A stretch of DNA of 12,904 bases. It comes from Bdellovibrionota bacterium. Its GTDB lineage: Bacteria; Bdellovibrionota_C; UBA2361; JBIKWN01. The stretch covers positions 1-12,904 of the forward strand of contig JBIKWN010000066.1 of NCBI GenBank assembly GCA_044356295.1, in the 5' to 3' direction. Shown here in pieces: positions 1 to 12,904 of this stretch. A model generated the notes under the pieces. That model was not told the origin of the DNA. It saw only the letters and a list, made by a program, of their open reading frames with translations, and made no database searches. A program made the position numbers and the translations under genes. How positions within the stretch are numbered: the first letter of the stretch is position 1; every line of letters begins with the position of its first letter.

Positions 1-2
1 AT

Positions 3-1358
3 AAGAGCAATAGCTAACACAGGCCCTGTAACTTCTTGCATCGCTTTATTTGTGGCATCCCTTGGTGATAATCCATGCTCGATATGATGTATGACTGCCT
101 CTACTACAACGATTGCATCATCAACTACTATTCCTATCGCTAACACTAACCCCAATAATGAAAGTGTGTTAATTCCAAATCCAAGCAAAGGAAAAACAGC
201 AAAAGTAGCAATCAAAGCAATTGGCACTGTCAAAATAGGAATCAGTGTTGCTCGCCAATTTTGAAGAAAAATAAATACAACCAATAAAACAAGAATAATT
301 GCTTCAAAAAGCGTATGAAGAATTTCATCGACACCTGCAGTTACAGCTTTAGTTGTATCAAGCGAAATCGAATAATCAATATCTTCAGGGAAAGCTTTTT
401 TTAAACTTTCCATGGTGGATCTAATTTGATTAGCTACCTCTAAGGCATTTGACCCAGGAGTCTGATAGATTGAAATGATTGCAGATGGCTTTCCATTAAT
501 TCGGCCAATTGCATTGTAGTTTTGCGCCCCAAGCTCTACTCGCCCTACATCTTTGACTCTGACAATGGATCCATCACTATTAGCTTTAACAATTACGTTC
601 TGAAAATCTTCCGCAGTCTGTAATCTGCCTTTAAGTCGCAATGGATAAGTAAACTCTGTACCAGCAGGTGCAGGCTCGGCCCCAACTTTACCACCAGGAG
701 CAATTATATTCTGCGACTGAATAGCTTTTGTAATATCAGAAACCGTAAGCTGCAAAGTCGCAAGCTGTGCCGGATTAACCCAAATTCGCATTGCATAATC
801 ACTACCGCCAAATAAATTTACCTGCCCAATTCCATTTATCCTAGATAACTGATCGTTGATATTAATTGCAGCATAGTTACTTAAAAAATTTCCATCAAAA
901 GTCCCCTTTGGAGAACTAACTGCCACAAGCATTAACGGGAATGATAGTGATTTTTTTACTGTTACACCTAAACGCTTAACCTCTTCAGGCAACGAAGCTT
1001 GACCTTCTGACACTCGGTTTTGCACAAGTACGTTGGACATATCTAGATCTGATCCAACTTCAAAGGAAGCTTTAATCGAACTGCTACCATCATTTGAATT
1101 AGTAGATCGAATATAGATTGATTTCTCTACACCATTAATTTTTTGTTCAAGAGGAGCCGTAACCGAAGATTCAACTGACACCGCATCAGCACCATTATAA
1201 GTGGCACTAACTTGAATTTCGGGTGGAACAACATCGGGATACATTGCGATTGGAAGCTTTGTCAAAGACACCGCTCCAAAAATAACCAAAACAATCGAAA
1301 TTACGATTGCAACTATTGGTCGCTTCACAAAGAAGTTTTCTTTTATTTCCTGATTCAT
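3..1358 (-). CDS. RND efflux permease (AcrB/HAE1 family), N-terminal ~452 aa, runs off the left edge
   Basis: Not in the ORF track. Manual translation from the ATG at 1358 gives MNQEIKENFFVKRPIVAIVISIVLVIFGAVSLTKLPIAMYPDVVPPEIQVSATYNGADAVSVESSVTAPLEQKINGVE..., and later DYAMRIWVNP and LAIGIVVDDAIVVVE, which are AcrB-family signatures. Starts 8 nt after the adaptor stop codon. Confidence 0.95.
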   Translation of the reverse strand, partial: MNQEIKENFFVKRPIVAIVISIVLVIFGAVSLTKLPIAMYPDVVPPEIQVSATYNGADAVSVESSVTAPLEQKINGVEKSIYIRSTNSNDGSSSIKASFEVGSDLDMSNVLVQNRVSEGQASLPEEVKRLGVTVKKSLSFPLMLVAVSSPKGTFDGNFLSNYAAININDQLSRINGIGQVNLFGGSDYAMRIWVNPAQLATLQLTVSDITKAIQSQNIIAPGGKVGAEPAPAGTEFTYPLRLKGRLQTAEDFQNVIVKANSDGSIVRVKDVGRVELGAQNYNAIGRINGKPSAIISIYQTPGSNALEVANQIRSTMESLKKAFPEDIDYSISLDTTKAVTAGVDEILHTLFEAIILVLLVVFIFLQNWRATLIPILTVPIALIATFAVFPLLGFGINTLSLLGLVLAIGIVVDDAIVVVEAVIHHIEHGLSPRDATNKAMQEVTGPVLAIAL

Positions 1359-1366
1359 CTTGGGCC

Positions 1367-2479
1367 TTATTGAATTTTAGCTTGAACTTTCATTCCGCTT
1401 TTAAGTCGTAGCTGCATTTGCGGAACAATTAAGTCTCCGGCAGAAAGCCCCTCTAGGACCTCGACTAAATCACCAACTTCTTTTCCGGTTTTTATATTCT
1501 TAACTTCAGCTATATTATCAGCGTTTACGACAACAACTTGCTTAATTCCTTGGATATCACGCATAGCTTGTTTTGGAACTGCAATAATATCGTGCAACGT
1601 TTCTCCGACTGCTCTGATTTTTGCAAATTGTCCTGGACGAATTAGCTTATCGGGGTTTGGAAAACTTGCTTCGATTGTTAAAGTTCCAGTTGTAGGATCA
1701 ACCTGCGAATCAACAGATGCTAACGTACCTTTGTGTGTATGAATTGAATCATCGCTCAGTACCAAAGTTAACTCTGTGGGGGTAGCGTTACCTTCATTTT
1801 CAGTTTGCTTTTTCTTTAAACGAGCAAAGTATAAATATTCTCGCTCTGTAATGCTGAATCGAACATTTATAGGATCTAGCTGCGAGATAGTAGTAAGAAT
1901 GGAAGAATTTGGTTTTCCAACAAGTTCACCAACTTTTGCTTTTGTTAATCCGATCAGTCCTGATACCGGAGCTGATATTTTTGTATATCCCAAAGAAATT
2001 GACGCCGAATCATAAACTGCTTTTGCCGCATCGACCGAACCTTTAGCGACTCCTTGTTGCGCAACTGCACCATCAAGATCACGCTGACTAACAGCTTTAA
2101 TCGCTGCAAGTGGTCTGATTCTTTCTAAATCTGAATTTGCTTTCACTAAGCGGGTTTCCGCTTCTGTAAGCTTCGCTTTTGCCTCGGCAAGCTTGGCTTC
2201 AAACGGCGCAGAATCGATTGTATATAACAGGTCTCCTTCTTTTACTTCTTTTCCTTCTTTGAAGTGAATTCCTACCAATACTCCCTCAACGCGCGCTCTG
2301 ACTTCGGCATCAACTGCCCCTTTGGTTTGGCCTACAAATTCAGCCGGTATAGAAATATCTTGTTTTTGTAATTTTAGGACTGCAATTTCAGGAACAATAG
2401 CAGTTTGGGCCACTTCCTCCTTGCTACATCCAAAAGTAAACAAAAAGACACTCAGTAAAAGGGCACGCAAAATCAGCAT
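1367..2479 (-). CDS. RND efflux periplasmic adaptor / membrane fusion protein (AcrA-like), probable lipoprotein
   Basis: Signal peptide with lipobox-like FGC; EVRARVEG, FKEGKEVKEGDLLYTID, TKISAPVSG, VDPTTGT and FPNPDKLIRPGQF motifs; directly upstream of the RND permease. Confidence 0.95.
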   Translation of the reverse strand: MLILRALLLSVFLFTFGCSKEEVAQTAIVPEIAVLKLQKQDISIPAEFVGQTKGAVDAEVRARVEGVLVGIHFKEGKEVKEGDLLYTIDSAPFEAKLAEAKAKLTEAETRLVKANSDLERIRPLAAIKAVSQRDLDGAVAQQGVAKGSVDAAKAVYDSASISLGYTKISAPVSGLIGLTKAKVGELVGKPNSSILTTISQLDPINVRFSITEREYLYFARLKKKQTENEGNATPTELTLVLSDDSIHTHKGTLASVDSQVDPTTGTLTIEASFPNPDKLIRPGQFAKIRAVGETLHDIIAVPKQAMRDIQGIKQVVVVNADNIAEVKNIKTGKEVGDLVEVLEGLSAGDLIVPQMQLRLKSGMKVQAKIQ

Positions 2480-2583
2480 AGCTTATTATCCCAAATCGTT
2501 TAACTACTCATAATGCGCGACAGAATCACACATATTAGCTTAGGAATAAATAGAGACTATGCCCAATACCACTTAAACAATAA

Positions 2584-2611
2584 ACAAGAAAAAAATTGGT
2601 ACAAAGTAACT
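2584..2611. repeat. Left inverted repeat (ACAAGAAAAAAATTGGTACAAAGTAACT)
   Basis: Imperfect reverse complement of 3848-3874; core also matches 3894-3908. Ends 43 nt upstream of the transposase ATG. Confidence 0.7.
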
Positions 2612-2654
2612 ATTTTGGCAACTTCCAAAGCTGGTACGACGAACAGTCAGTACA

Positions 2655-3620
2655 ATGCCAAGAACCCGAAGACACATTCAACCTGGAAGACCCTACGAGT
2701 TAATCCTAAGAGTTAAAGAAGGCTTACCGTTTCGTCCTAGCCCACTTATAAACACTCTCTTAAACGGGATTATTGCAAGAGCGCAAAGGGATAATAAGGT
2801 AACACTTTGCCATTACCTGTGGATGAGCAATCATATTCACATAATTCTAATCGCCAAATGCCCTTTAGCCACAGTTCATTTTTATCAAGAAATCCAAAAA
2901 AAAGTTACTGATACTTTCAAGCGTCTTTTAGGCAAAAGGCGACTTTCACTTTGGGAAGGTGACGCAGTCCTTGCTCAAATTCTAGACATTGATAAGGCAC
3001 TCGATAGAGTTGCGTATCTATATGCCAATCCGGCTCGCGCTAATCTTGTAGAATCAATCGATGATTATCCAGGCGCTTCAAGTTGGAATCAATTTTTATC
3101 AGAGAAAAAAGAGAGCCCGTCTATCCCTTGGATTCAACTTCCATCGATTAAAAAGCTTCCTTCTTTGTATCTAAACCAAAAAGACGAAGTAAAAATCTTA
3201 AAGAAGCTGTCATCGGAAAGTGTGACCTTACATAAGATTACTCTTGAACCAAATGCTTTGATTGCAGCATTTGGACATCAAGGTGACTGTAAGCAAATTA
3301 TAATTCAGAAAATTAGAGAAAAAGAAAAGCTTGCAAATCAAGCCAGGCACAGTGAGAAGAAATTAATACCGTCTAAAGAATTGCTACTGAATCAACAAAT
3401 TAACCGCGCACACTCTCCAAAGAAGCGTCTTGGAGAGAGAAGAATCTTTGTGCTTTCCTCTATAAAATCTCTACGGGTTAACTATATCTACTCGTTAAAA
3501 GAATTTTGTAGGAGATGCACTGAATGTTATAAAAAATCGATGCTAGGAATTGGGACAGTACGCTGGCCGATTGACGCCTTTAGACCTTTTCTTCCTCCGA
3601 TGTTGGTTGTAAATCATTAA
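2655..3620 (+). CDS. REP-associated tyrosine transposase-like (RAYT / IS200-like Y1 HUH endonuclease), 321 aa
   Basis: MPRxxR start, HUH motif in MSNHIHI, LWEG, catalytic-Tyr helix YLYANPARANLV and YPGASSW, all typical of RAYT/Y1_Tnp. Long C-terminal extension beyond the Y1 core. Confidence 0.88.
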   Translation: MPRTRRHIQPGRPYELILRVKEGLPFRPSPLINTLLNGIIARAQRDNKVTLCHYLWMSNHIHIILIAKCPLATVHFYQEIQKKVTDTFKRLLGKRRLSLWEGDAVLAQILDIDKALDRVAYLYANPARANLVESIDDYPGASSWNQFLSEKKESPSIPWIQLPSIKKLPSLYLNQKDEVKILKKLSSESVTLHKITLEPNALIAAFGHQGDCKQIIIQKIREKEKLANQARHSEKKLIPSKELLLNQQINRAHSPKKRLGERRIFVLSSIKSLRVNYIYSLKEFCRRCTECYKKSMLGIGTVRWPIDAFRPFLPPMLVVNH

Positions 3621-3847
3621 TTTATGATTCTATTACAATTCATAGTGGTCTATGAGCAAGTAGGGATTGAAAGCCTTTGGCTTCATGCGTGCTAAAGTTG
3701 AAAAAACGTATCTTAGTATAGGAAAATTCGGACTAGCGATTTAGATTCAGACTACTAAATTTAAAAAATTGTGATTTATACTTGTAAATCCTTTGTAGGC
3801 TGTGTGGGTTTTTACTTGGTTGATTGGTGAGTTTTATTAACAATCTG

Positions 3848-3920
3848 AGTTACCTTGTACGAGTTTTTTTTTGTACCAGTAAGTATTCTTCCAAGTTACC
3901 TTGTACCAGTAAGTATTCTT
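3848..3920. repeat. Right repeat cluster: AGTTACCTTGTAC x2 and TTGTACCAGTAAGTATTCTT x2
   Basis: AGTTACCTTGTAC at 3848-3860 and 3894-3906; exact 20-bp direct repeat at 3871-3890 and 3901-3920 (30-bp period). Confidence 0.9.
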
Positions 3921-3976
3921 GACGTTTTTCTCGGTCTTTAGCAGTTAATCCTGAGTGATAACTTTCTGCTTTAATA
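3917..3976 (-). repeat. Non-coding near-copy of an internal recQ segment (direct repeat of 9663-9722)
   Basis: Ungapped alignment at offset 5746 with 56/60 identity. Minus-strand translation is [19 protein letters not shown] versus Rec[20 protein letters not shown]. No start codon between it and the upstream in-frame stop at 4006-4008. Confidence 0.95.
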
Positions 3977-3988
3977 GGTGGTTCGACT

Positions 3989-4858
3989 TTAACAAAAAAG
4001 ATTTTTTAAATCTTCATCTGGTTCGTGAATGCTACAAGATCCAATTGTAAATGGTATCTGATTCATTGCATTGATTAGTTGATCCCGTGAGATTTTAATA
4101 TTATTCCAAATAATTTCGTTATCATTAAATTTAAAATTTTGTGGATTTGTTTCGGTTAAAATTTCATTGATAGTTGAAAGATCTATTCTTAAAATTTGAG
4201 AAAATCTTAACGCAGCAACTAAATTTAAAAATCCTAAGTTATTGTTATATTTTTCTAAAATTATTGGATGATGTAGGCCTCCTGTTGCTTTTAGTGGGGT
4301 CATCGAGATAGTAATTATTTCTAGGATTACAGCTATTTTTTCATTTGTGATAGCGGTAGGGCCAGTGCCTCTAATTTTTAAACTAAATTTTTTATCATGA
4401 CTTTGAATTTGTTTTAGAAACAAGGAAAGTGTTTCTTGCCAGTTGTGAGTTGATAGATCTGGCTCTAATGCGACACAAAAGGGAAGGTTGTTAAGTATTT
4501 GGATATAGTTATCGAATAAAGATTTAGAATTAATTACTAAGTCTGAAATTTTCATTTCAAGGCTTTTAATATTATAGCCTTGGTTTAAAAGTGTATTTAA
4601 CTTTTCGATCTGATTTTTGAATAATATTTGATTATCAGTTAGTTCGTTTGAAAGGAGAGCAATACTTAAACTTAGATCTTTAATTTCATCAACTTGATCG
4701 ATTCCTATAACGATATCAGATGCTAGTAAATTTTTTCTTATTAAAGTATTTGTAAAATCTTTTGTTGTAGCAATAGCGTCTTGAATCGATTTTGATTCAG
4801 GCGGGAATATCCCACTATAGTCAAAAAGTTTGTTTGTTATTAAATCTAAAGTAGTCAT
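3989..4858 (-). CDS. Conserved hypothetical protein of homogentisate-pathway gene clusters
   Basis: 289-aa ORF, 1 nt downstream of the FAA hydrolase gene. Motifs FDYSGIFPP, LKIRGTG, KATGGLHHP, GFLNL and GSCSIHEP resemble an uncharacterised family I recall (DYAGLFPP...KATAGLHHP...GSCS..EP). Confidence 0.75.
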   Translation of the reverse strand: MTTLDLITNKLFDYSGIFPPESKSIQDAIATTKDFTNTLIRKNLLASDIVIGIDQVDEIKDLSLSIALLSNELTDNQILFKNQIEKLNTLLNQGYNIKSLEMKISDLVINSKSLFDNYIQILNNLPFCVALEPDLSTHNWQETLSLFLKQIQSHDKKFSLKIRGTGPTAITNEKIAVILEIITISMTPLKATGGLHHPIILEKYNNNLGFLNLVAALRFSQILRIDLSTINEILTETNPQNFKFNDNEIIWNNIKISRDQLINAMNQIPFTIGSCSIHEPDEDLKNLFC

Positions 4859-4859
4859 T

Positions 4860-5852
4860 TTATGCTACGATTTGATTAATCTGTCCAAATATACTTTTTC
4901 CATTTAATTTCATATCAAATTTAATTTTATCGCCTTTTTTCATAAAAGGAGTTGATGCTGTGCCTGTATTTATTATTTCCAGCATACGTTTTTCGGCAAG
5001 ACAACTTGATCCAACACTTTCATCTTTATTGGAAACTGTACCGCTACCAATTATTGTTCCTGCTGTTAAGGCGCGAGTCTTTGCGGCGTGAGAGATAAGC
5101 TTTGCAAAAGAGAAATGCATCTCTGAAGCATTAGGATGTCCAAAAGGCTCCTCGTTTAGCCATGATTCTAAGGGTAAGTGAACTTTGCAATCATTCCATG
5201 CTGCTCCTAGTTCATCTGGAGTAACTGCAAATGGGGCAAAAGATGAACTTGGTTTTCCATGAAAAAATCCAAAACCGGTTGCAAGTTCTTTGGGGATTAG
5301 GTTTCTAAGTGAAACATCATTCATTAGCATTATAAGCTTTATGTGATTTTTGGCCTTATCTTCACTTACTCCCATTGGAACATCGTCAACAACCACAGCG
5401 ACTTCGCCTTCAAAATCCATGCCCCATAATTCATCTTTTAATATTATTGGATCGAATGGACCTATTAATGTATCGCTGATGCCTTGATACATTAATGGTA
5501 CTGTCAGTAAGTCTTCAGGAGGCTCGGCACCTCTGGCTTTTCGCACTAATATTACATGTTGTATAAATGCACTTCCATCTAACCATGCATAGGTTCTTGG
5601 AAGAGGTGCCTTAAATTTTGCACTTTCTATATTAAATGTTTCTAATTCAGAAGAGTTGCTATTTAGTAGCGTTTGTTTAATCTTCAACTCTTCAGATGCG
5701 CTACCCCAAGATTCAATTGCGCTTAATAGGGTTTTGAATTTATCAGATGCATAGCAGAACTTTTTTCTACAATCTGAAACTAAAATTAGTCTTCCATCAA
5801 TTTTTTCTGAATGATTAGTAGGATTTTGTACTTCAATTGTAGCTAATCGCAT
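4860..5852 (-). CDS. Fumarylacetoacetate hydrolase family protein
   Basis: APLPRTYAWLDGSAF, PLMYQG, DFEGEVAV, NDVSLRNLIPKEL and GTIIGSGTVSN motifs; context with hmgA and hppD. Confidence 0.92.
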   Translation of the reverse strand: MRLATIEVQNPTNHSEKIDGRLILVSDCRKKFCYASDKFKTLLSAIESWGSASEELKIKQTLLNSNSSELETFNIESAKFKAPLPRTYAWLDGSAFIQHVILVRKARGAEPPEDLLTVPLMYQGISDTLIGPFDPIILKDELWGMDFEGEVAVVVDDVPMGVSEDKAKNHIKLIMLMNDVSLRNLIPKELATGFGFFHGKPSSSFAPFAVTPDELGAAWNDCKVHLPLESWLNEEPFGHPNASEMHFSFAKLISHAAKTRALTAGTIIGSGTVSNKDESVGSSCLAEKRMLEIINTGTASTPFMKKGDKIKFDMKLNGKSIFGQINQIVA

Positions 5853-5854
5853 AT

Positions 5855-7027
5855 TTATAGATTTCCTCGTTTTGCTTGTTCTCTTTCAATTGCTTGAAAA
5901 AGTGCCTTAAAGTTTCCAACTCCAAATCCTCGAGAGCCTTCTCGTTGAATTATTTCAAAAAATAAAGTAGGTCTATCATGTACAGGTTTGGTGAAGAGTT
6001 GAAGAAGATAACCATCATCATCACGATCTACTAAAACGCCAAGTGCAGCAATTTTTGTCATGTCTTCTTTTATAGATCCTACTCGATTAGGAATTTCGTC
6101 ATAGTATGTTTTGGGAACAGATAAAAATTGAACTCCTCTTTCTTTTAGTGCAGAGACTGTTTTAATTATATCCTTACAACCGCATGCTATATGTTGAACA
6201 CCAGCACCGTTGTGGAATTCTAGATATTCTTCAATTTGAGATTTTCTTTTGCCTTGAGCAGGTTCGTTAATAGGAAACTTAATTTTGCCGTTACCGTTGT
6301 GCATAACTTTGGACATTAACGCGCTGTATTCTGTCGATATATCATCATCAGTAAAATGCAGTAATTGAGAAAATCCAAGAGTTTGTTCGTAAAAACTCAC
6401 CCATTTATTCATTGCCCCTAGTTCTACATTTCCAACAACGTGATCTATTACAATTAAACCTACATCAGGTCCATTATCAGTCCAGTCTGCGATTTCAGAA
6501 TAAGGAACAAAGCCAGGCCAAAATGTACCTTTGTATTCTTTTCTTTCAATTAATGAATGAACAACATCACCATATGTTTTTATCGTTGCTTTTTTTACCT
6601 GTCCATTTTCATCTTCAAATAAAGTAGGAGCCATTACACTTGTGGCTCCATTTTTTAATGCTTGGTAGTAAAAACTTTCACAATCTGGAACACGTAGAGC
6701 TAAATCTTTTGCAGAGGTGCCATGTAGATGAACAAATGAAGCAATAGGAGATGTAATTTTAAGTGCTGAAGTAATGATTAGAGTTATATTTTGTTGTTTT
6801 AGACAATAACTTGCGGATTCTGGATATTTTGTTTCAGGGCCTTTATAGGCAAAAGGTGTAAACCCAAATGCTTTACAGAAAAAGAAGGCGGTTTGTTTTG
6901 CATTTTCACAAAAGATCTCAACGTAATCGATTGCTTCAATTGCTAGCGGATCATATTGGGTATTTGAGCTGTAGTTACTAAAGATTATTGGTTTTCCAAA
7001 ATGAACACTACTATCTTTAATTGGCAT
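5855..7027 (-). CDS. hppD: 4-hydroxyphenylpyruvate dioxygenase
   Basis: IDHVVGNV, YSALMSKV, KFPINEPAQGKRKSQIEEYL, GVQHIA, RPTLFFEIIQR and GFGVGNFKALF motifs. The ATG at 7027 avoids overlap with hmgA; 7051 is an alternative start. Confidence 0.96.
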   Translation of the reverse strand: MPIKDSSVHFGKPIIFSNYSSNTQYDPLAIEAIDYVEIFCENAKQTAFFFCKAFGFTPFAYKGPETKYPESASYCLKQQNITLIITSALKITSPIASFVHLHGTSAKDLALRVPDCESFYYQALKNGATSVMAPTLFEDENGQVKKATIKTYGDVVHSLIERKEYKGTFWPGFVPYSEIADWTDNGPDVGLIVIDHVVGNVELGAMNKWVSFYEQTLGFSQLLHFTDDDISTEYSALMSKVMHNGNGKIKFPINEPAQGKRKSQIEEYLEFHNGAGVQHIACGCKDIIKTVSALKERGVQFLSVPKTYYDEIPNRVGSIKEDMTKIAALGVLVDRDDDGYLLQLFTKPVHDRPTLFFEIIQREGSRGFGVGNFKALFQAIEREQAKRGNL

Positions 7028-7041
7028 AGAATTCCTATAAT

Positions 7042-8190
7042 TTAAATCCAACTTTTAATGTATCCTTTGTCACAAAGTGCAAATCCTTGCTTTGTAATTT
7101 GCAAAGGATGATGAGTATCAATCATTACGGCGAGTTCTTCTGTTTTGGTTTTTCCTAAAGAGGCTTCGACTGTTCCTGGGTGAGGGCCATGAGGAATGCC
7201 TGCTGGATGATGTGTAAAGGATCCTGTATTGATACCTTTTCGACTCATAAAATCACCTTCTACGTAGTACAGAACTTCATCACTGTTTACGTTTGAGTGA
7301 TTATACGGAACAGAAACTGCCTGAGGGTGATAGTCGTACATTCTAGGAACAAAAGAGCATACGACAAATCCTTCGGCATTAAATGTTTGATGCGTTGGAG
7401 GTGGTAGGTGTATACGACCAGTAATGGGTTCGAAATCTTTTATATTAAAGATAAATGGATATAAATATCCATCCCATCCGACAACATCGAATGGATGATG
7501 ATCTAATATGAATTCATTAAGTTGATCCTGAGATTTAACTTTAACAGTGAATTCTCCTTTTTCGTCTTTAGGGGTTAATTGAGTAGGAACTCTGATGTCT
7601 CGCTCGCAAAAAGGGGAGTGCTCAAGAAGTTGACCATATTCATTTCGATATCTTTTTGGAAATTCAATTGGAGAGTTTGATTCTAAACATAGAAATTTAG
7701 TGGGCTCTTCAATTTCAACTTGATACAATGTTCCAACTGGTAAAATTATATAATCACCTTTAACAAAGGGCATATTCCCAAATTGAGTCTTCAGTGTTCC
7801 TTTTCCCCAATGACAAAAAAGCATTTCATCGCAATCGGCATGACGAAAAAAATAAGTCATATTTTCAGTTGGAGTTTGCAAGCCTATTCTTACTTGAGCA
7901 TTCCCAAGTAGCCAAACTTTTGAATTAATTGCATCACCGCTTGATGAAAATTGATCGGTTTTTAAATGTCTGTGTTCAAGGTTAATTCCCTGTACATATT
8001 CTAAAGGAAAAGATCCTATCAGTTTTGCACTTCGAACACTTGTTGGAGCATTGTTGTGATATAGAATTGATTGAATTCCAGAGAATCCTCTAACTCCCAT
8101 GACATGTTCATGATAAAGAGAGTTGTCTGGTTTTCTAAATTGAATATGTCGTTTGTGAGGTATGTTTCCTAATCGATGATAGAATGGCAT
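7042..8190 (-). CDS. hmgA: Homogentisate 1,2-dioxygenase
   Basis: GNIPHKRH, HHPFDVVGWDGY, GRIHLPPPTHQTF, PYNHSNVNSDEVLYY, HPAGIPHGPHP and ELAVMIDT motifs. Confidence 0.95.
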   Translation of the reverse strand: MPFYHRLGNIPHKRHIQFRKPDNSLYHEHVMGVRGFSGIQSILYHNNAPTSVRSAKLIGSFPLEYVQGINLEHRHLKTDQFSSSGDAINSKVWLLGNAQVRIGLQTPTENMTYFFRHADCDEMLFCHWGKGTLKTQFGNMPFVKGDYIILPVGTLYQVEIEEPTKFLCLESNSPIEFPKRYRNEYGQLLEHSPFCERDIRVPTQLTPKDEKGEFTVKVKSQDQLNEFILDHHPFDVVGWDGYLYPFIFNIKDFEPITGRIHLPPPTHQTFNAEGFVVCSFVPRMYDYHPQAVSVPYNHSNVNSDEVLYYVEGDFMSRKGINTGSFTHHPAGIPHGPHPGTVEASLGKTKTEELAVMIDTHHPLQITKQGFALCDKGYIKSWI

Positions 8191-8241
8191 ACAATAAGAA
8201 TAGTCGACCTAAGGCTTAACGAAAAGCTTTTTCTAGTAGTT

Positions 8242-8402
8242 TTATTTTGCATTTTTGCCCAACCAGCTTTGATTGCTTTGAATCTTGCAGTTGGAGTTGA
8301 TGTTCTTGTGGTAACACTTTTTTGATCTGGCACTTCTAGATCCCAGATGTCTGCGCCTCTAAAGGAGTGATAGGTCCAATTGAACTTGTAAGTATTAACG
8401 AG
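8242..8402 (-). pseudogene. Gene remnant resembling the C-terminus of a GH5-like glycoside hydrolase
   Basis: Minus-strand frame reads LVNTYKFNWTYHSFRGADIWDLEVPDQKSVTTRTSTPTARFKAIKAGWAK. The WTYHSFR..W motif recalls GH5 C-termini. No N-terminal part or start codon. Confidence 0.4.
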
Positions 8403-8653
8403 TAGGAAACAACGAGTGGTGTAGAAAGTCAGAGTCGAAGCCGCATTAGTATCGTGGAAGCAGTGGTTTATACAATCTGGTTGATGTTTACCTGAAGATT
8501 ATTGAAGCAACAGCATTCTGTAAGCTATTGATCTTAGGTTATTACATTCTTTTACGAGCAGCGGATATCAAGATGGTACTTTTCTAGCCAACAAAGATTT
8601 GAAGAGAATCACTTAAATGTAATCAGAGTTTCTTAATTCACAAATGATTGCAT

Positions 8654-10504
8654 TTAATACAACCCAAGTATCTGCTCCCCATAAAGCGCAAGTTTGTTTT
8701 CACCAATTCCATGAACAGACTCCAACTCACGAAGTGTTTGAGGCATTTTACGTGATATTTCTTGCAGCGTTTTATCACCCAAAATCATATAAGCAGGTAT
8801 ACCTTTCTGCCGAGCAACATCAGCGCGCCATCTTCTAAGAACTTCAAAAAAATCTTGATTATACGACTCTTCACCAAGTTGAATTCTTCGGTCACGCCGT
8901 TTATCTGAACTGAGGGACGCAGAAATAAGAGGTCTCTTTAAAGTGAGACTCGGTTTTTCCTGAATAAACTTCATCCCTGCTTGGGTGACTTCAATCGTTC
9001 TAAATTTTTCAAGATTGATTCTTAGGAACCCTGCACTAATAAGTTCTCTTCCGTAATATTGCCAATCGGTACGACTAATATCATCTCCAATGCCAAACGT
9101 TGAAAGAGAATCGTGCCCCCATTTGATAACTTTTTCAGTTTCATTTCCTTGTAAGATATCTACAAGATGAACAAGCCCAACGTTAAATCCGCTCATTTGT
9201 TTCACTCGAAGTGCACAAGAAATTAGTTTAAGAGCAATCTCAGTTCCATGTACAAGGTCCCGAGGAGCGATGCAATTATCGCATGTGCCGCACTGCTCAA
9301 GAACTTCTCCTTTATCAGAGCAGTAAGTTTCACCAAAATAGTGAAGCAGCGACACCCTTCGACATTGAGATGATTCTGCAAAATGAATTAACTGAGTCAG
9401 TTGCGTTTGTGCAGTTTGTTGCTCAGTTTGATCTTCCATCCTATCGATAAAAGATCTTATTTTCGCTGCATCACCTGGGCTGTAGAGCAGAACACACTCA
9501 CTTGGAATTCCGTCTCTGCCCGCTCTCCCTGTTTCTTGGTAGTAACTTTCAATATTTTTTGGAAGATCGTGATGGATGACAAATCGAACATCAGGTTTAT
9601 CAACTCCCATTCCGAATGCAATCGTTGCAACCATGACCTGTGTTTTATCGATGATAAAGTTATCTTGACGTTTTTCACGGTCTTTAGCAGTTAATCCAGC
9701 GTGATAACTTTCTGCTTTTATATTTTTCTTTCTTAGAGCTTCAGCAACTTTTTCAGTTTGTGCTCTACTTAAACAGTAAATAATTCCTGATTCGTTTTTG
9801 TGTTCAGCTATGATTTCAAGAATCTGTTTTATAGCTGACATTTTGGGAACGATTCTGTATGAAAGATTCGGTCGATTAAAACTTGCTGTAAAAATAGCAG
9901 GATTTTTTAACTCGAGTGACTCAATAATATCATCTTGCACTCGTTTTGTGGCTGTAGCTGTAAGAGCAATAATAGGAAGATCTGGAATTTTTTCTCTGAA
10001 GATTTTTAATGCTCTATATTCTGGTCTGAAGTCATGTCCCCATGATGAAATACAATGTGCTTCATCAACGGCAAGTGCTTCAAGATTCAAAGAGATAAGT
10101 TTATCAATCATTCCATCTATCATGAGGCGCTCTGGTGAAACGTAGAGAATTTTTATTTTATTATTATAAAGCTGCTTCCAGATCTCTTTTGCAGAAGCTT
10201 CATCATGTGAGGAGTTTAAAAATCCAGCGTTTATTCCCATCTCTTTTAACGAATCCACTTGATCTTTCATTAAGGCAATAAGTGGAGAGATGACAACAGT
10301 TAATCCTTTACGAACAAGAGCTGGGAGTTGGTAGCATAAAGATTTTCCACCACCGGTAGGAAGCAGGGCTAGGGTGTCTCGCTTTTCAAGATGGGACTCT
10401 ATGATTTGTCGCTGGAGTGGGCGAAATGATGTGAAGCCGAAATACTGTCTTAATACTACAGCAAGTGGATCGGTTTCTGATGTTGAGGTGGTATCGTTAG
10501 GCAT
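8654..10504 (-). CDS. recQ: ATP-dependent DNA helicase RecQ
   Basis: LPTGGGKS (motif I), [45 protein letters not shown], Zn-binding CRR...CGTCDNC, RQC winged-helix region and one C-terminal HRDC domain. Confidence 0.97.
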
Positions 10505-10852
10505 GATATTTTGTCATATGCATCGTATAATACATGGTCAGAGTTTCCTAAGGTTACGCGAAAAAGAGTAGGGTAAATTACTTGGGATTGGAGAGGCTCA
10601 CATTTATAATCTTAAAACACTTTGGCGATGTTGATACCGACAACATCACGATCCTTTCCGACGAGGCCCCCACCGACCGACGAATAATCGTTAAGCAGGA
10701 ACCAAGTGTGCTAAGGGTTCCCACTCCTAACTACTTGTCTTCTGCCTTTTTTTAGCGCAGGTAGAACAAATTATGGCGGATCTCCTCAGTGCTGCCGTTT
10801 CTAAAATAGCAGAGGATCCTCATTTATATGATGATCTTTACAAAAAATTAAC

Positions 10853-12766: not shown

Positions 12767-12852
12767 AGCACTACTGTCCGGTACCAATCTATGTGCATTA
12801 AGTAATTGAAAAGTTACTACTAAACAAAGATTTGATATTTTTTCCATTTAGT

Positions 12853-12904
12853 AACGCGAAGGTCGCGAAGTACGCGAAGAAAATAATTATCCCTTCGCGT
12901 ACTT
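12853..12904. repeat. CGCGAAG 9-bp-period triplet with inverted copy (palindromic intergenic repeat, truncated by the window edge)
   Basis: AACGCGAAG GTCGCGAAG TACGCGAAG at 12853-12879. AAGTACGCGAAG (12868-12879) is the perfect reverse complement of CTTCGCGTACTT (12893-12904), with a 13-nt loop. Confidence 0.85.

Follow-up and report, generated by a model that had tools for sequence, protein, structure and literature searches.

RAYT enzymes and their dispersed repeats are the closest described counterparts of the locus analysed here. The design of REPIN/RAYT systems is laid out in passages of PMC3116915 and PMC3337134, and RAYT and REP-REPIN systems are also treated in a section of PMC3479197. 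RAYTs bind and cleave REP DNA (stated in part of PMC4690160), and REPs are described as short hairpins that carry a conserved tetranucleotide, GTAG or CGTC, at the 5' side (part of PMC3733652). The RAYTs described in passages of PMC5581495 are single-copy and vertically inherited, and Y1 subclasses with large C-terminal domains appear in a portion of PMC6006769. A limited literature search, with supplements outside its scope, yielded no prior description of the element family or of the kind of junction reported below, and nothing usable was found in the literature on REP sequences as rearrangement joints.

The locus lies on a contig of 12,904 nt (C79), which was analysed in its entirety and is called the window below. 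Its genome assembly (G000; 2.96 Mb, 128 contigs, 38.6% G+C) was compared with two others of the genus, G001 and G002; all three are fragmented assemblies (between 128 and about 370 contigs each), in which a mixture of strains can mimic between-contig duplications. Ten long ORFs, among the 24 of at least 60 aa in the window, were run against Pfam. A single ORF accounts for the mobile element at the centre of the analysis, whose parts are as follows:

2589..3869, plus strand: RAYT-like mobile element with one gene and inverted terminal cores (comparison with G002 contig C212)
2597..2611, minus strand: left terminal core, TGGTACAAAGTAACT on the plus strand, with one mismatch to the core consensus (motif scan and comparison with the G002 ends)
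2655..3620, plus strand: gene for P0001, a predicted HUH/Y1 (RAYT-like) protein of 321 aa (profiles, alignment, structural model and Foldseek)
3848..3862, plus strand: right terminal core, AGTTACCTTGTACGA (motif scan and comparison with the G002 ends)

Judged by its sequence and modelled fold, P0001 is a RAYT-like HUH/Y1 enzyme, its enzymatic role being predicted. The protein consists of an N-terminal catalytic domain of about 145 aa and a conserved, mostly helical C-terminal domain of about 175 aa. It gave no match at the default Pfam threshold. The NCBIfam profile NF047646 (REP_Tyr_transpos) matched over profile positions 1-144 of 146 (E = 8.1e-10, 38.8 bits against a cut-off of 80), and Pfam Y1_Tnp (PF01797) reached 19.3 bits (E = 1.3e-3) against a cut-off of 23. 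When 39 homologues were aligned, no variation was seen at H60, H62, Y121, N125 or P126. The AlphaFold2 model has a pLDDT of 92, and its top PDB match in Foldseek was 4er8_A (E = 5.8e-6, 153 aligned columns, TM (target) 0.72), which is the E. coli RAYT-REP complex with the REP hairpin bound; IS608 and ISDra2 TnpA came next in the ranking, and the C-terminal 175 aa or so were not placed by this search. The invariant H60, H62 and Y121 and the best fold match thus bear out the preliminary description, which had called the 321-aa protein HUH/RAYT-like. Compared with the known RAYTs (TnpA-REP of E. coli, 4er8, and the enzymes of Pseudomonas REPINs), P0001 has the same HUH/Y1 core, with a His-hydrophobic-His motif and the Tyr in a Y-x3-N-P helix; unlike them, it is twice as long owing to its conserved C-terminal domain, and it falls under the curated cut-offs of both NF047646 and PF01797.

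The element measures 1281 nt and is 94.9% identical to a copy on G002 contig C212 that sits in another genomic context, the homology ending at 2589 and 3869. The other genes of the window are only 65-77% identical between the two genomes, as against about 95% for the element. A second copy of the P0001 gene, 96% identical up to aa 186 (aa 1-186) and broken off there by another repeat, was found on C8, together with gene fragments on C113 and distant paralogues on C8 (27%) and C102 (22%), and matches to P0001 occur in 35 of 41 relatives, with as many as 21 per genome. The C8 copy, the C113 fragments, the matches in relatives and the difference in identity indicate that the RAYT-like gene behaves as an insertion sequence. 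In this it differs from RAYT groups 2 and 3, which are domesticated, single-copy and vertical, whereas the gene here is multi-copy and seemingly horizontally exchanged. The element family, with its long RAYT-like protein, multi-copy IS-like behaviour and REPIN-like miniature derivatives, stands between domesticated RAYTs and true insertion sequences and merits description. As a side observation, the C8 copy (C8:1-704) is cut at the equivalent of window position 3213 by another repeated element that runs on into C66:62-142, and the same loose end at 3213 was seen in the run of a second study (X2, see below).

The ends of the element are inverted, reading AAAAAAAY-TGGTACAARGTAACT at the left and AGTTACCTTGTACSA-GTTTTTT at the right, with the A-run and the T-run as outer flanks. 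The 15-nt core, AGTTACCTTGTACCA, has 63 matches in G000 at two mismatches or fewer (13 of them exact), which form 20 inverted, REPIN-like doublets with a conserved spacer of 39-42 nt, plus 21 singlets. Each doublet can fold to a hairpin whose stem is 15 bp long (z between -0.2 and -5.3), in which a G-T pair on one strand corresponds to an A-C mismatch on the other. In G002, 80 core matches were counted versus two in a reversed control, and in G001 there were none above control. The inverted cores and the comparison of ends with G002 confirm the earlier proposal that the repeats are the end sequences of the RAYT-like element. A gene between inverted short repeats that are also dispersed in the genome, mostly as hairpin doublets whose arms are about 40 nt apart, is the arrangement of a RAYT/REPIN system; in contrast to a REP, the core is not self-complementary and has no GTAG or CGTC, so that a hairpin forms only between the arms of a doublet.

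Just beyond the right end of the element lies a short piece of recQ. The features concerned are:

3871..3920, plus strand: extra repeat ends outside the element, with TTGTACCAGTAAGTATTCTT at 3871-3890 and again at 3901-3920, and a full core at 3894-3908
3917..3976, minus strand (sense): recQ-derived piece, covering recQ codons 262-282, the match being extendable to 3911
3989..4858, minus strand: gene for P0002, a conserved protein of 289 aa, whose stop codon is 12 nt from the recQ piece
9657..9722, minus strand: source-like stretch within the intact recQ (alignment), with AAGTTATCTTGACG at its edge, 11/14 like the repeat core AAGTTACCTTGTAC

A match of 56/60 (60/66 when extended), in the same orientation and starting inside the last repeat, had been noticed in the preliminary description and was reproduced by alignment and BLASTN. 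Positions 3911-3976 align with recQ positions 9657-9722 without gaps and with equal strands (60 of 66 identical; repeat search and alignment), and the core of the match, 3917-3976 against 9663-9722, has its four mismatches at 3931, 3952, 3954 and 3973. When the piece-bearing repeat flank was compared by BLASTN with the 2.96-Mb genome, the match fell in recQ (E = 2.5e-20), and no further copy of the piece was found across that genome. The intact gene (8654-10504, minus strand, 616 aa) is full-length, shows all five Pfam domains (DEAD, Helicase_C, RecQ_Zn_bind, RQC and HRDC) and is the sole recQ in G000; the codons covered by the piece encode the conserved YHAGL region of RecQ. None of the stop-to-stop frames that reach at least 70 aa covers the piece. 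An extension of the match at the protein level (3901-4083, E = 1.6e-5, 36%, three stops) was discarded because nearly all its identities fall within the 60-nt core. Insertion of the element into a recQ copy was likewise rejected, since repeat and BLAST searches gave no recQ match left of 2589.

The recQ piece lies outside the mobile element. Helitrons and IS91/ISCR elements use Y2 or rolling-circle enzymes, and a piece that they capture travels with the element. The locus resembles these systems, and IS-mediated adjacent deletions, in that a piece of a host gene lies against the element end, a junction that end-to-pseudo-site joining would give; unlike the pieces of Helitrons and IS91/ISCR, the recQ piece is not within the mobile unit, and the other copies lack it. 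On its other side, P0002 is the last gene in a row of fumarylacetoacetase / HPPD / homogentisate-dioxygenase-like genes. No Pfam or NCBIfam family matched P0002, which 10 of 41 relatives share with 25-41% identity and which may be an unrecognised member of a tyrosine-degradation cluster. Downstream of its orthologues in G001 and G002 (39-41% identity), no repeat, RAYT gene or recQ piece was found.

The left joint of the piece lies in repeat sequence. The recQ match starts within the second TTGTACCAGTAAGTATTCTT copy (3901-3920), in an imperfect microhomology of 10 nt: the repeat tail reads AAGTATTCTT (3911-3920), recQ reads AAGTTATCTT and the repeat core reads AAGTTACCTT, with pairwise identities of 10/10, 8/10 and 9/10. 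The resemblance of recQ to the repeat core was read by eye from the sequences and noticed post hoc. The tail variant found here, GTAAGTAT, is rare, and the exact 15-mer TGTACCAGTAAGTAT occurs twice in G000, both times beside the recQ piece, once in G002, and nowhere else in these two genomes. Since G002 has AGTTACCTTGTACCAGTAAGTAT followed by unrelated sequence, the tail belongs to the repeat and not to recQ, so that certain recQ homology begins at about 3917-3921. The single G002 copy of TGTACCAGTAAGTAT lies 1.36 kb from the G002 recQ, with the tail and the antisense recQ oriented as in the window. At the right joint (3976/3977), no recognisable homology or repeat motif was seen.

The four differences in the core show that the piece is no fresh copy of the resident recQ, and point either to an old event or to a related source allele. 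In the recQ frame they comprise ATA/ATT (synonymous, the piece having the G002 state), GCT/TCA and CGT/CGA (synonymous). At the GCT/TCA site both G002 and G001 have GCA, which implies one change on each side. The ATA/ATT difference and part of the GCT/TCA difference look like changes on the recQ side, because the state of the piece is found in G002 at both sites and in G001 at the Ala codon.

The resident gene has itself a history of movement. Window positions 8620-10577 are 91% identical to G002 contig C64 (40502-42458), where the gene context is another one, with a sharp common edge at 10577; the RecQ protein is 94% identical to that of G002 and 68% to that of G001. An identity of 91%, against 65-77% for the other window genes, in different contexts suggests a recent exchange of recQ between species. 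Furthermore, two parts of this region, window 8415-8529 (89% identical) and the final 44-46 nt of recQ (95-98%), recur on a stretch of G002 contig C50 (906-1427), in the order and orientation of the window and with no recQ behind them, while the intact G002 recQ is elsewhere. This apparent remnant indicates that recQ formerly lay at that site. Between the two C50 pieces is part of another repeated element. In the window, one more feature lies at the edge of this region:

8380..8396, plus strand: possible degenerate repeat end, TTGAACTTGTAAGTATT (14/17), 260 nt downstream of recQ, which could be due to chance

Its orientation to recQ equals that of the 3901-3920 copy to the recQ piece, and it sits at the left edge of a block that is 89-95% identical to G002 contig C50.

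Taken together, the junction anatomy, the flank screen described below and the evidence for recQ relocation favour what the preliminary description had kept as a fallback, a passive rearrangement scar: the recQ piece is probably a non-functional scar of a rearrangement whose joint falls at the outer end of one of the REP-type repeats of this RAYT-like element family. For the route as a whole, we tentatively propose a second recQ copy and two deletions, a scheme that we hold with somewhat less than even confidence. A second recQ copy would once have lain downstream of a GTAAGTAT-tailed repeat end, as in present-day G002. Deletion of the DNA between this repeat end and a point within the gene would then have removed everything up to codon 282, either through catalysis by the Y1 enzyme, with a repeat-like pseudo-site as its target, or by plain microhomology-mediated joining; a further deletion would have taken the remaining recQ and left 20 codons, and the piece would afterwards have drifted in sequence. 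G002 would represent the reciprocal outcome, in which the moved recQ was kept and a 46-nt remnant stayed at the old site. Against this route, an internal piece of 60 nt requires two deletion endpoints, although the right-hand joint has no recognisable homology or repeat motif, and the second recQ copy at the 3917-3976 site is a hypothetical one. If the scar reading is true, the piece has no function and its value is that of a dated footprint; the repeats of this Bdellovibrionota REP/RAYT family would be elements at whose outer ends DNA is broken and rejoined, and recQ in this genus would have been exchanged between species and relocated.

The main rival to a scar left by deletion is a templated insertion, in which, while DNA beside the repeat was being replicated or a break there repaired, the nascent strand changed template to recQ, which lies 5.7 kb off and has the same strand, and returned after copying about 60 nt. 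This would have used the AAGT(A/T)(T/A)TCTT microhomology at the left joint and would require no second recQ copy; the piece is short, and its source is near, in direct orientation and on the same contig. The hairpins of REPIN-like units, with their 15-bp stems, could also stall replication forks; the repeat copies beside the piece, however, are direct and do not form hairpins. Recent copying of the resident recQ is excluded by the 4/60 differences, with the G002 state at two of the sites, and the rare GTAAGTAT tail near the G002 recQ would be left unexplained. We therefore regard a templated insertion as rather unlikely.

A more active part for the enzyme was also considered. The Y1 enzyme might join repeat ends to host pseudo-sites (in recQ, AAGTTATCTT|GACG) and might in this way have moved or duplicated recQ, the GTAAGTAT-linked recQ then spreading between two species; one species would have kept the moved copy and the 46-nt remnant, and the other the old copy and the 60-nt remnant. 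We consider this quite unlikely. If true, host genes could be relocated by a RAYT/REPIN-type system, and the gene moved would be recQ, whose helicase product would act on the system's own intermediates.

A quite different possibility, raised in the preliminary description, was that the piece is a captured spacer or guide. TnpB uses a flank-derived guide (omega RNA), and Y1 enzymes of the fold of P0001 recognise DNA hairpins; to our knowledge, no RNA guide is required by such Y1 enzymes. Like IS200/IS605 elements with TnpB, the element has a Y1 HUH enzyme that would act on single-stranded ends, and sequence just past the element end can matter. Unlike them, it has no tnpB or iscB and carries terminal inverted repeats instead of distinct left and right hairpins, and no scaffold-like fold lies beside the recQ piece. 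Among the ten ORFs run against Pfam, no gene for an RNA-guided nuclease (RuvC, TnpB, IscB or Cas) was found in or beside the element, and Rfam gave no family anywhere in the window. The fold at the piece did not differ significantly from shuffled sequences, with z = 0.77 for RNA of the minus strand and 0.43 for DNA of the plus strand.

The preliminary description had also proposed a BLAST of the flanks of the repeat copies against the host genome. For this screen, the 120 nt past each repeat end at 139 core matches (three mismatches or fewer, some of them by chance) were compared with G000. The results showed that, among these 139, the flank in the window is the only non-coding one that copies the interior of a long real gene, the rest having been classified by open frames; no second short internal gene piece in non-coding DNA was thus obtained. 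Most non-self flank matches came from an unrelated palindromic family beside one chance core match on C59. The other flank matches in G000 were rejected as cases of capture, as they proved to be C59-type palindromic repeats, intergenic repeats or paralogous genes. The nearest other flank case is a partial duplicate of at least 311 nt (94%), formed by C27:1-311 (reverse) with C90:1-178 against C90:9009-9329; it comprises the upstream region and the 5' part of a 187-aa frame (C90:9027-9590) and stops exactly at a REPIN-like unit, and it differs in kind from the recQ piece. Within positions 1-8000 of G002 contig C142, where REP cores occur at seven places, all 27 non-self matches fell on repeat units (39-96 nt) and none on flanks. 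The G002 copy of the element (95% identical) is followed by unrelated DNA with no recQ piece, and the C8 copy is likewise without it.

A functional module would consist of an HUH enzyme that captures host DNA and a read-through antisense or guide-like RNA that acts on recQ or on RecQ-sensitive intermediates. In terms of geometry only, the arrangement would allow it: the plus strand that begins with the RAYT-like gene and continues across the repeats is antisense to recQ, the interval 3620-3976 contains no predicted terminator-like site, and the piece adjoins a repeat end. Against this, the piece is one case among the 139 repeat ends screened, with none in the G002 stretch searched; the element copies in G002 and on C8 do without it; an RNA-guided nuclease gene, a structured scaffold and an Rfam match are all lacking; and a possible shorter piece in another assembly (X3, below) would fit decay, if weakly. 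The captured spacer or guide module was accordingly not borne out, and we consider such a function extremely improbable; the answer to the guide-RNA question is negative. Three other known arrangements were tried and rejected as well. A DGR-like reading failed, as the ten ORFs include no reverse transcriptase and the differences are not confined to the adenines of one copy; for an integron attC-like reading, no attC-like core was seen by eye; and for a tRNA-linked reading, no tRNAs were found.

The junction was further compared with other assemblies. X1, a separate assembly from a public lake-water run that is perhaps the sample of origin for the window, contains a contig of 5085 nt that joins the repeat, the recQ piece and the following gene, with 0 differences across 3654-4500. 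The junction is thus not confined to the G000 assembly. In X2, from a second study, 3654-3914 and 3941-4500 were found without differences, and among the contigs listed 3914-3941 is unbridged; the contigs of X4 cover the neighbouring gene only. Among the public runs listed for this stretch, no RNA run appeared. These data bear on the possibility of an assembly artefact, in which reads of a variant recQ allele were wrongly joined to the repeat. The assembly is indeed fragmented and repeat-rich, and the listed X2 contigs break at 3914 and resume at 3941. The X1 contig, however, spans 3654-4500 without a difference, the longest exact run in common with recQ is about 20 nt and so probably too short to mislead an assembler, and on either side the piece is flanked by sequence that is unique to the window contig. 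An artefact is therefore very unlikely. In X3, from a third study, a low-depth contig of 170 nt has TAAGTATC joined straight to position 3938, with eight letters of support; it may represent a decayed recQ piece, about 20 nt shorter, although this is weak. A collection of metagenome contigs, which may omit records close to G000, gave 0 exact matches to a fragment-specific 41-mer and 0 to a 37-mer with two free positions, and these searches yielded no donor recQ allele or second junction.

The recQ piece is not the only rearrangement at these repeats. REPs are known from classical reports to lie at the join-points of duplications, and the repeat ends of this element family often serve as joints where sequence has been duplicated, in tandem or as segments. 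Duplications of the tandem kind, with their start at TTGTAC, were found at C23:29485, C23:67035, C89:8441, C63:23869 and C113:7579 as well as at window 3871-3920; they take in 7-12 nt of the tail, and at least five copies exist besides that of the window. At C63:23876-23924, the tandem design of 30 nt is like that of window 3871-3920. The common start at TTGTAC hints at a defined break-and-join point at the repeat ends. The footprints are of several kinds, namely repeat ends duplicated in tandem, segmental joints and one scrap of a gene. The recQ piece is, in these terms, an ordinary, neat rearrangement footprint, and the element beside it is a RAYT/REPIN-like system with an IS-like lifestyle.

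Several minor observations concern repeats and duplications elsewhere in these genomes. G002 contig C214 (216-4917) has segments in common with C112 and C101, five in all, with lengths of 178-788 nt and identities of 77-99%, and two of them end within 12-34 nt of repeat cores; either strain variation or more repeat-end joints could account for them. Just upstream of the G002 recQ (C64, 9851-10004 of the stretch), 154 nt duplicate the 3' end of a gene for 281 aa at 95% identity. The intact 281-aa gene is on G002 contig C248, where the corresponding segment is 138-291 of the stretch; its end abuts a REPIN-like unit, and the homology begins at the repeat edge; alternatively, the copy could reflect a strain-variant contig. 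The non-coding stretch downstream of recQ (window 8421-8613) has copies at 74-84% on C126, C8, C124 and C113 of G000, the one on C8 adjoining the distant RAYT paralogue, and more copies in G002 (C50 and C234) and G001 (C193); Rfam at a relaxed threshold gave nothing over 8150-8700. Finally, window 12852-12879 is a copy of another, very abundant palindromic family whose units measure about 36-45 nt; dozens of copies are present, and many of them lie at contig ends.
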